DNA of 64,000 bases from an uncultured Bacilli bacterium (GTDB lineage: Bacteria; Bacillota_I; Bacilli_A; RFN20; DUOF01): contig CALVUJ010000010.1 in the NCBI GenBank assembly GCA_944363575.1, positions 19,817-83,816 on the forward strand. Reading direction: 5' to 3'. The position numbers and the translations under genes are program-made. Every line of letters begins with the position of its first letter. The first letter of the stretch is position 1. Below are positions 17,968-21,700 of the stretch, piece by piece. The notes below the pieces were generated by a model. That model saw nothing but the letters and a program-made list of their open reading frames with translations. It did not search any database and was not told where the DNA came from.

Positions 17968-17984
17968 AGTGGGAGTTGAAAGAA

Positions 17985-18539
17985 ATGGAAAATGTAGAGA
18001 AAAAATGGTATGTTGTTAATACGTATTCAGGGCATGAAAATAAAGTAAAGATTAATCTTGAGAGAAGAATTGAGTCTATGAATATGCAAGATTATATTTT
18101 TAGGGTTATAGTAGCAGAGCATCCTGTTCCTGTTTTAAAAGATGGAATGCCTACGGATAAGATTAAGATGAAGAATACATATCCTGGGTATTTGTTTGTT
18201 GAAATGTATATGACAGATGAAGCATGGTATGTAGTTCGTAATACTCCTGGTGTTACAGGGTTTATTGGTTCTAGTGGTAGGGGTGCTAAGCCATTCCCGG
18301 TTCCTAAAGAGCAAATTGAGTCTGTGTTAAAGGGTATAGGAGTAGTAGAAGAGGGTATGTACTCTGATTATAAAGTTGGGGATGTTGTGAAAATTCTTCG
18401 TGGGCCTTTGATGGGAAGTGAAGGAATAATTCAAGAAGTAGATGTTACTAAGAGTATTGTTAGAGTTAGTTCAGTATTTTTTGGTAGAGAGACATCGGTG
18501 GAAGTTGATTTTGCTGATGTAGATAAGGTTAATAAATAA
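17985..18539 (+). CDS. nusG: Transcription termination/antitermination factor NusG.
   Basis: The NGN domain (KKWYVVNTYSGHENKV) and a C-terminal KOW motif (VGDVVKILRGPLMGSEGIIQEV) are present. Alternative TTG start at 17976. Confidence 0.9.
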   Translation: MENVEKKWYVVNTYSGHENKVKINLERRIESMNMQDYIFRVIVAEHPVPVLKDGMPTDKIKMKNTYPGYLFVEMYMTDEAWYVVRNTPGVTGFIGSSGRGAKPFPVPKEQIESVLKGIGVVEEGMYSDYKVGDVVKILRGPLMGSEGIIQEVDVTKSIVRVSSVFFGRETSVEVDFADVDKVNK

Positions 18540-18809
18540 AAGTTAATGAAAAGCATTAAATTTTAAGTAAAGTAGTATTTGTGGTGTTTTGTTTGTAGAA
18601 AGAATAATTATAAGTTTTGGTTATAATTATTTTTTTTATTATATTTTTATAAATTATTTATAATTAATTTTTTTAATATATTTATGTTGTTTTTTAGTCT
18701 TTAAATGATTTCTCGTGATATTTTTTGTGATGTGATGATTGGATTTGTAAAGAAGAAAAACATGAATATTAGGTGGGATGAAAGTATAATAATTGTTTTT
18801 AAATATATT

Positions 18810-18822
18810 GTATCAATGATAC
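18810..18822. promoter_or_regulatory. Perfect 6-1-6 palindrome GTATCA-a-TGATAC immediately upstream of the first gene of the inserted cassette. Candidate operator for the HTH antitoxin.
   Basis: Read directly from the sequence. It overlaps the RBS/start region of the 18829 ORF. Confidence 0.35.
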
Positions 18823-18828
18823 GGAGAG

Positions 18829-19185
18829 ATGGTTAATCTGATTAGCACTGGTGTTAGTGTAAGTAAAGTTGTAACGGATGAGATAATATATAAAATAGAG
18901 AAGTATGATTTTATTGTAATACCAAGGGAGAAGAATGTGGATTTTTTTAGGAAGTATCGATTGAATAAGACTAAAGTTAGAGAGATGAAATGGCAAGATT
19001 ATGTTGATGAGGTAGAGGATTATGATGGATTTAAACATGGATTAGATTTTCTTGTTATATTTGAGAAAGAAGTGAAGTTAACTAATTTTCATGGTGTAGA
19101 TGAGTATATAACTATTTATGTTAAAGTTAAAAATGTAGAGGGAAGGAAAGTGCCGGTTGTTTCTTTTCGTAAGAGTGAAGGGTAA
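18829..19185 (+). CDS. Small protein (118 aa), candidate MqsR-like RelE-fold mRNA interferase toxin.
   Basis: The gene is first in a three-gene cassette, directly upstream of an MqsA-like antitoxin (toxin-first order as in mqsRA). The protein ends in ..GLDF...YITIYVKV...VPVVSFRKSEG, resembling the MqsR C-terminal region (..GLDFDG...YLKITVI...LIVSFKEK) as I recall it. Confidence 0.5.
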   Translation: MVNLISTGVSVSKVVTDEIIYKIEKYDFIVIPREKNVDFFRKYRLNKTKVREMKWQDYVDEVEDYDGFKHGLDFLVIFEKEVKLTNFHGVDEYITIYVKVKNVEGRKVPVVSFRKSEG

Positions 19186-19206
19186 TTTATAGAGGAGGAT
19201 AGTGTG

Positions 19207-19572
19207 ATGGAAAAGGTTAGATGTGTGTATTGTGATTGTAAAAGAGATTATGAAGTGATTGATGAAGAGTATGTATATGTAGAGGATGATATGGAAGTAA
19301 GATATGGTGGGAAAAAAGCAATTTGTAATGTGTGTAAACATGAGATAATGATTGATGAAATTGAGGATTATAATCAAGTGCAGTTTGAAAAAGCATATAA
19401 AGAAATGAATGGTATAATAAGTGTTGAGGTAATTAATCAAATAATGGAAAAATATAATATTGGTAAAAGGTCGTTATCTTTGGTTTTAGGGCTAGGAGAG
19501 ATAACTATTACAAGATATTTGGATGGGTATGTGCCTACGAGTAAGAATTCTAAATATTTAAAAAAATATTAA
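19207..19572 (+). CDS. MqsA-like antitoxin. It has an N-terminal zinc ribbon (CVYC...30 aa...CNVC) plus a C-terminal XRE-type HTH.
   Basis: The CxxC-x30-CxxC spacing is identical to the MqsA Zn site. The HTH is IMEKYNIGKRSLSLVLGLGEITITRYLDG. RBS GAGGAGG is upstream, and GTG 19204 is an alternative start. Confidence 0.65.
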   Translation: MEKVRCVYCDCKRDYEVIDEEYVYVEDDMEVRYGGKKAICNVCKHEIMIDEIEDYNQVQFEKAYKEMNGIISVEVINQIMEKYNIGKRSLSLVLGLGEITITRYLDGYVPTSKNSKYLKKY

Positions 19573-19595
19573 AGTCACCTGAAGAATATTATGGG

Positions 19596-20171
19596 ATGTT
19601 AATGAAGAATGGGAAACTTATTTCTTCATTAGCTTTTAAGAAGTCTAAAGAGCGTTGTGAAGAGATATTAGGTATTGATAATAATGATCGTACTATTATT
19701 GATATAGGTAATTATATAATGAGTAAATATGATGAAACTACACCACTAGCATTACAAAAATTACTATATTATATACAAATGTTTGGATTAACTTTTTTGG
19801 GAAGACCTATATTTAATAATCAATGTAAAAGATGGGATTATGGGCCGGTATATAGTGAAGTTTATTTTGAGTTTAAAAATATTCGTTTTGAATCTAGGAT
19901 ACATGAGTCAAGCGAATTATATGTAGATTATGAGGCTAAGCGGTTAATTGATTCAGTATTGAAGGCCTTTGCTTGTTATAGTGGCAATACTTTATCATAT
20001 TTTACATATTGTGAAGATCTTTGGAAGAAGGCTAGTGAGCAAGGATTAGAGGTTATATCAAGAGAATTAATAAGAGAGCAAGGTAATAAGATAAATAATT
20101 TTGAAGATATAAGTTTGTATAGTGAAAGTACGTTTAATAAGTATAAAAATAATTGTTTAGGAGATTTATAA
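19596..20171 (+). CDS. Panacea (DUF4065) domain protein, PanA/SocA-type putative antitoxin.
   Basis: The hallmark motifs LQKLLYY and W-YGPV..VY.EFK are present in TPLALQKLLYYIQMFGLTFLGRPIFNNQCKRWDYGPVYSEVYFEFK. Confidence 0.65.
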   Translation: MLMKNGKLISSLAFKKSKERCEEILGIDNNDRTIIDIGNYIMSKYDETTPLALQKLLYYIQMFGLTFLGRPIFNNQCKRWDYGPVYSEVYFEFKNIRFESRIHESSELYVDYEAKRLIDSVLKAFACYSGNTLSYFTYCEDLWKKASEQGLEVISRELIREQGNKINNFEDISLYSESTFNKYKNNCLGDL

Positions 20172-20376
20172 TAAAAGTTACAAGTGATTGTTAAGAATAT
20201 ACATCTTAATTGTGCAGTATAATTTGATGAAAAGTTAGATTTTTTGTTTTGATACTTGCAATTAGTTTTAGGATGTAGTATGATAACACACGTGTATGAG
20301 AATACACTTTTGCGCAGTGGGAAGAATTTGATTCTGTTTGGACCACAGCCTTAAAAGTTAGAAGGAGGTAAAATAT

Positions 20377-20790
20377 ATGTCTAAGAAAATCGCAAAAGTT
20401 GTTAAGATTCAACTTCCAGCAGGGGAAGCAAAACCAGGAGCAGCATTAGCAAGTGCAGGTATTGTTATGCCTAAGTTCTGTTCAGAGTTTAATGAGAAAA
20501 CAGCTGATAGGAGAGGTGATATTGTTCCTGTAATTATCACTGCTTATGAAGATAAGTCATTTGATTTTGTAATTAAGACAAGTCCTGTTACTAATATGAT
20601 CAAGAAAGCTTGTAATATTAAGAGTGGGTCTAGTAATCCTAAGAAAAATAAGGTTGCTAAGCTTAGTAAAGAGGATGTTAGAAAGATTGCAGAATATAAA
20701 ATGCCAGATTTAAATGCGAATGATATTGATGCTGCAATGAAGATTGTTGCAGGTAGTGCTCGTAGTATGGGCATTGAAGTAGAAGAATAA
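20377..20790 (+). CDS. rplK: 50S ribosomal protein L11.
   Basis: The N-terminus MSKKIAKVVKIQLPAGEAKPG is L11-like, and the 137-aa length fits. Position before rplA is canonical. RBS GGAGG is upstream. Confidence 0.9.
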   Translation: MSKKIAKVVKIQLPAGEAKPGAALASAGIVMPKFCSEFNEKTADRRGDIVPVIITAYEDKSFDFVIKTSPVTNMIKKACNIKSGSSNPKKNKVAKLSKEDVRKIAEYKMPDLNANDIDAAMKIVAGSARSMGIEVEE

Positions 20791-21528: not shown

Positions 21529-21557
21529 TGACAAGTGTATAAAATAAAAGTAAAATA
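21529..21557 (+). promoter_or_regulatory. Sigma-A type promoter TTGACA-17-TAAAAT for the rplJL operon.
   Basis: The sequence matches the consensus exactly. Confidence 0.7.
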
Positions 21558-21564
21558 ATGATGC

Positions 21565-21700
21565 TTATTACCAAAGACAGCAACGGTCAAGGGACTTAAT
21601 AAGGTTGCCGAGGTGAACATGAATTGTTTATTTCCCTGTGTGCTTTTGGTAAGAATACAGGGTTTTTATTTGGGTAAGTAAGCTTATTATAAAAAAAGAA
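21565..21700 (+). promoter_or_regulatory. Ribosomal protein L10 leader with an intrinsic attenuator hairpin (CCCTGT...ACAGGG plus T5 at 21635-21668).
   Basis: A ~150-nt untranslated leader lies between the promoter and rplJ. It contains GACAGCAACGG and a terminator-like hairpin, the typical Firmicutes L10(L12)4 autoregulatory leader. Confidence 0.6.

Follow-up and report, generated by a model that had tools for sequence, protein, structure and literature searches.

What kind of genetic element occupies the interval between nusG and rplK in an uncultured, low-GC gut Bacilli bacterium, and does it still work? The locus lies in contig CALVUJ010000010.1 of assembly GCA_944363575.1, from which we analyzed a stretch of 64,000 nucleotides (hereafter, the window). 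The nusG stop codon and the rplK start codon are 1837 bp apart, and the gap holds three small co-directional open reading frames, ORF1 to ORF3 (Table 1). A first-pass annotation, made from the sequence alone, described them as an inserted toxin-antitoxin (TA)-like cassette with a previously undescribed three-gene architecture, comprising an MqsR-like toxin, an MqsA-like antitoxin with a zinc ribbon and a helix-turn-helix (HTH) domain, and a Panacea (DUF4065) protein. Our analysis bears out the insertion and the TA character of the cassette, but not the three-gene architecture. We consider it likely that an MqsR-like:PanA type II TA module was gained horizontally and came to lie between nusG and rplK, that its antitoxin gene was split by a frameshift, and that ORF2, the first of the two resulting fragments, still neutralizes the toxin.

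An antitoxin gene in two reading frames

The domain identities proposed for the two downstream ORFs held in profile searches, if at different levels of significance. ORF3 matched the Panacea profile PF13274 with 58.4 bits (E = 1.7e-15), above the gathering cutoff of 25.7, and in this respect resembles the PanA/Panacea (DUF4065, SocA-like) antitoxins. ORF2 matched TIGR03830 (E = 2.3e-12, 46.8 bits; cutoff, 61.8) and PF15731 (E = 4.5e-4, 20.8 bits; cutoff, 30), with both scores under the curated cutoffs. The putative zinc ligands of ORF2, C7, C10, C41 and C44, are aligned with the MqsA cysteines and invariant in 31 aligned family members, and ORF2 shows no deviation at any of the 28 highly conserved family columns. 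By these matches, ORF2 is an MqsA-like zinc-ribbon and HTH protein. Its XRE-type HTH is incomplete, however: the alignment with TIGR03830, which begins at the first profile position, ends at position 108 of 127.

The missing part is found in the neighboring frame. When ORF2 and ORF3 were fused at the A run between them and used as one query, 336 homologues were retrieved, of which the best 120 are almost all 311–343 aa long and cover 95–100% of the joined query (extremes, 260–376 aa and 78–100%); many of these 120 contain both PF15731 and PF13274. The phrog_10390 profile matches the two ORFs consecutively, with positions 17–108 falling on ORF2 and positions 130–291 on ORF3. The five closest homologues (63–71% identity) read without interruption over the break (...SKYLKKILKSPEEYYAML..., with SKYLKKILKSPEEYY across the split site). 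In the window, ORF2 ends in ...SKNSKYLKKY*, and it is the -1 frame past the break that reads ILKSPEEYYGML and continues as IFKKILKSPEEYYGMLMKNGK... into ORF3.

The codons at the break suggest how the split arose. The homologues have TAT TTA AAG AAA ATA TTG AAG, encoding YLKKILK, whereas the window has TAT TTA AAA AAA -TA TTA AAG. This comparison implies that the lineage of the window changed AAAGAAAA to an A run, which then dropped one base to leave the present tract of seven A (A7). Specifically, a G>A change would have produced an A8 run, and the loss of one A would have converted the gene into ORF2, with the zinc domain and a truncated HTH, and ORF3, with Panacea. Residues 4–130 of E. coli MqsA (structure 3GN5) align at E = 8e-4 with a profile built from the fused family, and the match reaches family position 129, about 8 residues beyond the break. 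As the MqsA homology continues to this position in the other frame, the last HTH helix (ILKSPEEYY) is absent from ORF2; the break itself falls in the middle of a helix of the HTH.

Among both close and distant relatives, we found no homologues with separate genes for the zinc-binding domain (ZBD) with the HTH and for Panacea; all are fused. From this comparison, ORF2 and ORF3 are a single gene whose frame was broken when a poly(A) run lost 1 nt, and the tripartite reading of the locus falls away. A genuine selected three-component system, in which the toxin, an MqsA-like antitoxin and a free Panacea protein are each expressed and needed, thus appears very unlikely, even though all three ORFs are open, the same allele occurs in three assemblies and stand-alone Panacea antitoxins exist elsewhere (PMC8832971). 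In addition to the uniform fusion in relatives, such a system is at odds with the nature of the break, a single-nucleotide homopolymer loss within an HTH helix rather than a domain boundary with start signals of its own, and with the distribution of the proteins: in a collection of 15 billion proteins, the exact ORF2 and ORF3 sequences occur only in contigs of this organism. Moreover, no ribosome-binding site (RBS) is evident for ORF3, and a hairpin (19598–19633; z = -2.5) contains or adjoins its ATG codons (19596 and 19602), so that free Panacea protein would probably be made poorly, if at all. The resemblance to true tripartite TA systems (toxin-antitoxin-chaperone, paaR-paaA-parE, mazEF-mazG) is superficial, extending to the presence of three small co-directional ORFs. 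The third component of those systems is conserved as a gene in its own right, whereas in all relatives of the window locus the counterpart of ORF3 forms the 3' part of the second gene.

Homopolymers are known to be assigned a wrong length at times, and a split of this kind could in principle be a sequencing or assembly error that conceals an intact fused gene. We consider this extremely improbable. The A7 tract is present in the 117 kb contig of the metagenome-assembled genome (MAG), in Logan assembly L082 (ERR4096492), which is 100% identical to the window over 3048 bp, and in ENA contig L097 from a second sample, positions 1–656 of which correspond to 19458–20113 of the window at 99.4% identity. 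The MAG contig and L082 may stem from the same reads, but L097, with differences at four other positions, represents a consensus distinct from theirs. Furthermore, short-read consensus sequences rarely miscount seven bases. Judging by the agreement of the three assemblies, the frameshift is real and not an assembly slip. The four differences in L097 comprise TTA>TGA at window position 19993 and three nonsynonymous changes, all transversions within 56 bp of one another near the end of the contig, and either show that the Panacea ORF has decayed further or are errors in the reads.

The toxin candidate and its relatives

The MqsR-like identity of ORF1 was upheld through its family and its predicted fold rather than by a direct match. 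ORF1 itself matches nothing in Pfam or NCBIfam (PF15723 and the NCBIfam MqsR model are absent even at E ≤ 1), nothing in PADLOC and, in PHROGs, a family of unknown function. When 1.84 billion representative sequences were searched with a profile, 124 members of the ORF1 family emerged, corresponding to at least 124 clusters at 50% identity, and 95 of these were aligned for the family profile, the conservation analysis and structure prediction. PF15723 (MqsR_toxin) was matched at E < 0.01 by 40 of the 95 (best E = 1.3e-6). In an hhalign comparison, the family aligned with E. coli MqsR over 87 columns (probability 44%, E = 2.4e-4), with its IYVK strand placed on the VYLK of MqsR that contains the catalytic Y81, and its C-terminal VSF(H/R)K on VSFKEK. 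Within the IYVK strand, Y97 and K99 are 95–100% conserved in the family; equivalents of MqsR K56 and Q68 could not be identified in it, and the position aligned with K96, the other catalytic residue considered, is His in 97% of members and Arg in the window (H114R).

AlphaFold2, supplied with the 95-sequence alignment, yielded a model of ORF1 with a predicted local distance difference test (pLDDT) score of 85 and a RelE-like alpha/beta fold nearest to that of MqsR; with an alignment of three sequences, the pLDDT was 44 and the model unusable. Taking the transitive homology and the modeled fold together, ORF1 is an MqsR-like, RelE-fold toxin candidate. Other searches returned little: Foldseek alone found nothing significant for the ORF1 model, a 6-sequence ORF1 profile matched no PDB sequence and the 95-sequence profile reached MqsR only at E = 0.59. 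Among metagenome contigs scanned with this alignment of ORF1, there were 600 pattern matches, but not one was confirmed. The family is mostly missed by the current Pfam and NCBIfam MqsR models, and annotation pipelines will label such toxins hypothetical.

Gene arrangement is consistent across the relatives. The sole close relatives of ORF1, 63–66% identical to it, are always encoded directly upstream of a fused ZBD-HTH-Panacea gene (homologous loci L081 and L083–L086). The order of toxin gene and then fused antitoxin gene recurs in L081, L083, L084/85, L086, L091, L093/94 and L095, in at least two species and with the toxin gene within 100 nt, and the toxins at these loci match the profile hidden Markov model of the ORF1 family at E = 1e-37 to 3e-27. 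Even distant members of the family (P0124, P0128 and a 137-aa protein of C. difficile) are each followed by a ZBD-HTH-Panacea gene of 321–331 aa. In the window, the toxin gene likewise lies upstream of the zinc-ribbon and HTH antitoxin gene, and 18 nt separate the stop codon of ORF1 from the start codon of ORF2.

This arrangement had already been described, contrary to the first-pass annotation. Kurata et al. 2022 (PMC8832971) defined the Panacea (DUF4065) antitoxins and recognized an N-terminal HTH in 343 PanAs; PanA genes at large occur in phages and defense islands. Ernits et al. 2023, PNAS (PMC10440598) experimentally validated MqsR(D2):PanA, with an antitoxin of the ZBD-HTH-Panacea type, in Bacillus fungorum and Lactobacillus rossiae. 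The module in the window resembles this system in having the toxin gene first, an MqsR-like toxin, here a candidate ribonuclease, with a Tyr, putatively catalytic in the window, in a YxK-type strand, the antitoxin domains in the order ZBD, HTH and Panacea, and a Firmicutes host, and the partner genes of its homologues have exactly the MqsR(D2):PanA layout. It differs in that its antitoxin is broken by the 1-nt deletion into a truncated ZBD-HTH part and Panacea: the three domains are not joined in one polypeptide in the window, as they are in all listed homologues. The window locus is, as far as descent can be read from these comparisons, a disrupted member of the ZBD-HTH-Panacea subclass of PanAs, with the family identity resting on the shared domain architecture and the matches to MqsR, MqsA and Panacea. 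The MqsR-MqsA pair of E. coli (YgiU-YgiT; structures 3HI2, 3GN5 and 3O9X) is another close known system.

Related cassettes sit in unrelated genomic contexts, including a defense island with SIR2, ThsB-TIR, Mrr and Fic. The closest homologue on a long contig (L086, 1–10987) has a defense-island-like neighborhood, which encodes SIR2_2, ThsB-TIR, an AAA_11/AAA_12 helicase, Fic/RhuM, Mrr_cat and DUF1016. A conserved hydrophobic ORF of 72 aa begins 4 nt past the antitoxin stop codon in L084 (1678–1896), L085 (1758–1976) and L086 (5992–6210); in its place, L083 has a Cys-rich ORF of 166 aa, and the window has neither.

Expected behavior of the split module

Before the split, the module would have comprised two genes, one for an MqsR-like RelE-fold ribonuclease toxin of about 115 aa and one for an antitoxin of about 325 aa. 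The zinc-binding domain of this antitoxin would bind and neutralize the toxin, its XRE-type HTH would bind a palindromic operator and mediate autorepression, and its C-terminal Panacea domain could act as the sensor that has been proposed (PMC10440598). In the validated system, mutation of the catalytic Tyr abolishes toxicity, and the isolated ZBD or ZBD-HTH neutralizes MqsR, whereas Panacea alone or HTH-Panacea does not (PMC10440598). In contrast to other PanAs, then, Panacea is not the neutralizing element in the ZBD-HTH-Panacea subclass, and in the window it is detached as well. From these truncation data, ORF2 should still bind and neutralize ORF1, as the isolated zinc domain of B. fungorum does, in which case the locus would operate as a plain MqsRA-like pair with Panacea uncoupled, poorly translated and starting to decay.

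Patterns of conservation fit such a pair. While no conserved column has changed in ORF2, and ORF1 retains N36, F78, L84, Y97, K99 and S112 and deviates at just 1 of 11 conserved positions, 5 of the 37 conserved columns of the Panacea part have changed, and two of these changes, H269Y and P273L, affect positions invariant in the 30 other sequences. The split allele thus probably still works in this manner. The Panacea part is 58–76% identical to that of the homologues and evolves fast in all lineages; a relative-rate comparison of ZBD-HTH and Panacea showed no clear excess divergence in the window. Among the related antitoxins P0005–P0008 (loci L084–L086), the ZBD-HTH part is 94–98% identical and the Panacea part only 62–87%. 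Panacea would seem, from these values, to evolve or to be exchanged far faster than the neutralizing part, which would fit a sensor under diversifying pressure. The split lies almost exactly at the cut used in the truncations of Ernits et al., making the strain the bearer of a natural ZBD-HTH-only allele, and such an allele could help test what Panacea contributes under the sensor hypothesis.

The region upstream of the cassette aligns with the putative promoter and operator of related cassettes. In the close homologues L083, L084 and L086, two copies of GTATCAATGATAC flank the promoter TTGACT-17-TATGAT, a layout that recalls the two palindromes of E. coli MqsA; the window holds the proximal palindrome only. 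At these three loci (in L083, at about 1990–2030), a strong AAAGGAGGAGGG is found 31 nt before the ATG annotated as the toxin start, and an in-frame AAT CTG follows it at normal spacing, raising the possibility that the toxin start in the homologues may be a non-ATG codon. In the window (18820–18845), this stretch is changed to GGAGAGATGG, which creates the ATG of ORF1 2 nt past GGAG.

Several signs of wear, which could mean that the module is already dead, weigh against a functional MqsRA-like pair. ORF1 has lost 4 aa in the conserved K.ILL.L..DF helix, a deletion unique among the 95 aligned members, and carries H114R at a site where His is 97% conserved; the HTH of ORF2 lacks its last helix; the distal copy of the putative operator and the -35 and -10 elements of the homologues are degenerate in the window; the AGGAGG RBS of the homologues is lost, leaving GGAG only 2 nt from the ATG; and the five Panacea deviations equal the maximum among intact homologues (0–5) without exceeding it. 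Taken together with the frameshift in the antitoxin gene and the additional nonsense codon that L097 may carry, these features could describe a decaying remnant with an inactive toxin and no working TA function, in which neutral erosion would account for the frameshift, the operator and RBS losses and the Panacea substitutions alike. We regard this explanation as a real but less probable possibility. All three ORFs are still open in a segment whose 27% GC content makes it prone to stop codons, and the conserved positions of ORF1 and ORF2 are nearly all in place. Furthermore, the residue of E. coli MqsR that corresponds to H114 is Lys, so that Arg may be tolerated, and the clustered transversions in L097, close to the end of a short contig, may be read errors.

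It is improbable, in our view, that the frameshift is compensated, either by -1 ribosomal or transcriptional slippage on A7 that gives some full-length protein, or by a reversible switch between A7 and A8. The tract reads A_AAA_AAA in the ORF2 frame, exactly the X_XXY_YYZ pattern, a -1 shift would recreate the ancestral protein, the 0-frame stop comes two codons later, and the Panacea frame is open across 202 codons. However, the shift is not conserved, with the homologues having AAG AAA ATA in frame and no slippery run; no Shine-Dalgarno-like stimulator is present upstream; the one hairpin present begins some 32 nt past the tract, a distance too great for a classical stimulator; and seven A are short for efficient transcriptional slippage. 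If slippage does take place at a low level, it is, to judge from the homologues, no evolved feature of the antitoxin family. An elaboration of this idea, which we rate as highly improbable, is that the A7/A8 tract is a reversible slippage switch, at the level of DNA, RNA or the ribosome, that sets the ratio of sensor-less to full-length antitoxin, while the cassette also feeds regulated transcription into the L11/L1 operon. Were this true, the switch would tune whether the toxin can be triggered, and the position of the cassette, just upstream of the rplKA promoter and with no terminator between, would be the setting for such transcription.

The nusG-rplK spacer and its cargo

To place the cassette in context, we compared the junction across related genomes. 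The window has 31% GC overall, and the gene order around the junction (rlmB-like, sigma factor, rpmG, secE, nusG, insert, rplK, rplA, L10 leader, rplJ, rplL) is otherwise standard. NusG is at most 92% identical to that of any species representative, and the representatives are all fecal "Bacilli bacterium" MAGs. The nusG loci were fetched from 80 related species genomes and rplK was located in each; 67 of the 80 hold both genes in the fetched locus. The gap is 132–287 bp in 56 of these 67, and the closest relatives (L002, L003 and L004; NusG 92%) have empty sites of 168–184 bp, in comparison with the interval of 18540–20376 in the window. No relative of ORF1, ORF2 or ORF3 occurs near nusG in any of the 80 genomes, so that the additional DNA represents an insertion specific to this lineage. 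In the alignment, the window matches the empty-site relatives again from about 20242–20250 (ATTTTTTGT..TGATACTTGCA). From about 20245 on, it shares with them a T-run, the rplK promoter and a leader of about 90 nt, which indicates that approximately 1.7 kb was added between the nusG stop codon and this promoter. The AT-richness noted at the outset was also confirmed, with 27% GC in the insert and about 92% A/T in 18600–18700.

Table 1. Features of the nusG-rplK region and of the corresponding spacers in related genomes (window positions, unless a locus is named)
Feature	Position	Strand	Remarks
nusG	17976–18539	+	Pfam NusG and KOW; stop at 18539
Inserted segment, ~1.7 kb	18540–20245	+	nusG stop up to the conserved T-run and promoter of rplK
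Terminator-like element after nusG	18595–18646	+	A/T-only 19-bp hairpin, then U8; RNA fold, inverted repeat
Cassette upstream region	18742–18828	+	Like promoter/operator of related cassettes; alignment with L083, L084 and L086
Palindrome GTATCAATGATAC	18810–18822		Exact; sole exact copy in 64 kb
ORF1, 118 aa	18829–19185	+	MqsR-like (RelE-superfamily) toxin candidate
ORF2, 122 aa	19204–19572	+	N-terminal antitoxin part; zinc-binding domain and XRE-type HTH minus about the last 10 residues
A7 tract	19560–19566	+	Site of the 1-nt deletion; A_AAA_AAA register in ORF2 frame
C-terminal antitoxin part, -1 frame	19566–20171	+	HTH end, linker and Panacea domain; ORF3 as listed, 19596–20171, 191 aa
rplK promoter and conserved 5' leader	20256–20376	+	TTGCAA-17-TATGAT at 20256–20284; host DNA, outside the insert; promoter scan
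rplK	20377–20790	+	Ribosomal_L11_N and L11; start at 20377
L10 leader	21553–21677		Rfam RF00557, 69 bits
Cargo in relatives	L001 6561–7345; L005 6549–7412; L014 3870–4721; L018 6543–8455; L061/L065/L066; L072/L073/L076/L078

Neither terminal inverted repeats nor transposon ends were found at the borders of the insert, and no target duplication there was convincing. Short A/T-rich repeats were considered as insertion ends (TAAAAGTTA at 18537 and 20172; ATGAAAAG at 18546 and 20227), but repeats of this kind are expected by chance in DNA of 27% GC, and we draw no claim from them. The insert also contains minus-strand ORFs (79, 120, 59 and 68 aa), which we rejected as low-complexity antisense frames in a region with a GC skew of +0.7 where the real genes are all on the plus strand, as well as a 43-aa ORF (18705–18836) that has no family match and overlaps the promoter and operator region. 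Strand asymmetry is extreme over the whole window (1–64000), the plus strand of which contains 14218 G and 5631 C (GC skew +0.43, with local peaks of 0.8) and holds all real genes in the inspected region.

The first-pass annotation called a mobile or addiction-type module in this gene cluster unusual, but an occupied junction is not rare in these relatives: in 11 of the 67 genomes, the spacer is occupied by 0.8–2.7 kb of unrelated cargo (Table 1). This cargo encodes a lipoprotein, unknown proteins of 205 and 206 aa, TnpB/Cas12f-like fragments, a double-GNAT acetyltransferase, an Ig-like surface protein and an ISL3 transposase. In these gut Bacilli, cargo genes have repeatedly come to occupy the space between nusG and rplK, which tempers the assumption that this gene cluster is untouchable. 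Several further related genomes have no rplK after nusG at all. In L006 (6649–11099) and L007 (6651–11090), whose NusG is 90% identical, nusG is followed by a gene for a multi-pass membrane protein of 1154–1158 aa and by pta, with no rplK within 6 kb, so that the synteny of nusG and rplK is broken.

The insert appears to leave the expression signals of rplK in place. The rplK promoter and leader are conserved nearly base for base in L001–L005, whether the spacer carries cargo or none, and with its own promoter and leader rplK does not depend on the insert. The coupling of rplKA expression to read-through from the cassette that had been suggested is accordingly unneeded; neither a terminator scan nor RNA folding found a good terminator after ORF3, however, and read-through into rplK is possible. 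We envisage that rplK would be transcribed from its own promoter, with some transcription from the cassette possibly added. After nusG, the terminator-like element was missed by the consensus terminator scan because its hairpin has no G-C pairs; RNA folding of 18536–18650 gave -19.8 kcal/mol (z = -2.9).

The rplK 5' leader (20285–20376; ...CACTTTTGCGCAGTGGGAAGAATTTNATTCTGTTTGNACCACAGCC...) is near-invariant across species, although the spacer around it is not conserved. It matched no Rfam family even at E ≤ 1, the L10 leader being the only match, and it is a candidate L1-binding regulatory leader.

A comparable juxtaposition was seen in L087 (2450–4643), where a 46% identical ZBD-HTH-Panacea homologue (P0012, from an Anaeroplasmataceae MAG) is encoded directly upstream of rplM-rpsI. 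The partner gene preceding it codes for a multi-pass membrane protein of 148 aa, not for an MqsR-like protein. Here, too, a TA-like gene adjoins an operon for ribosomal proteins, but the putative toxin paired with it is a different one.

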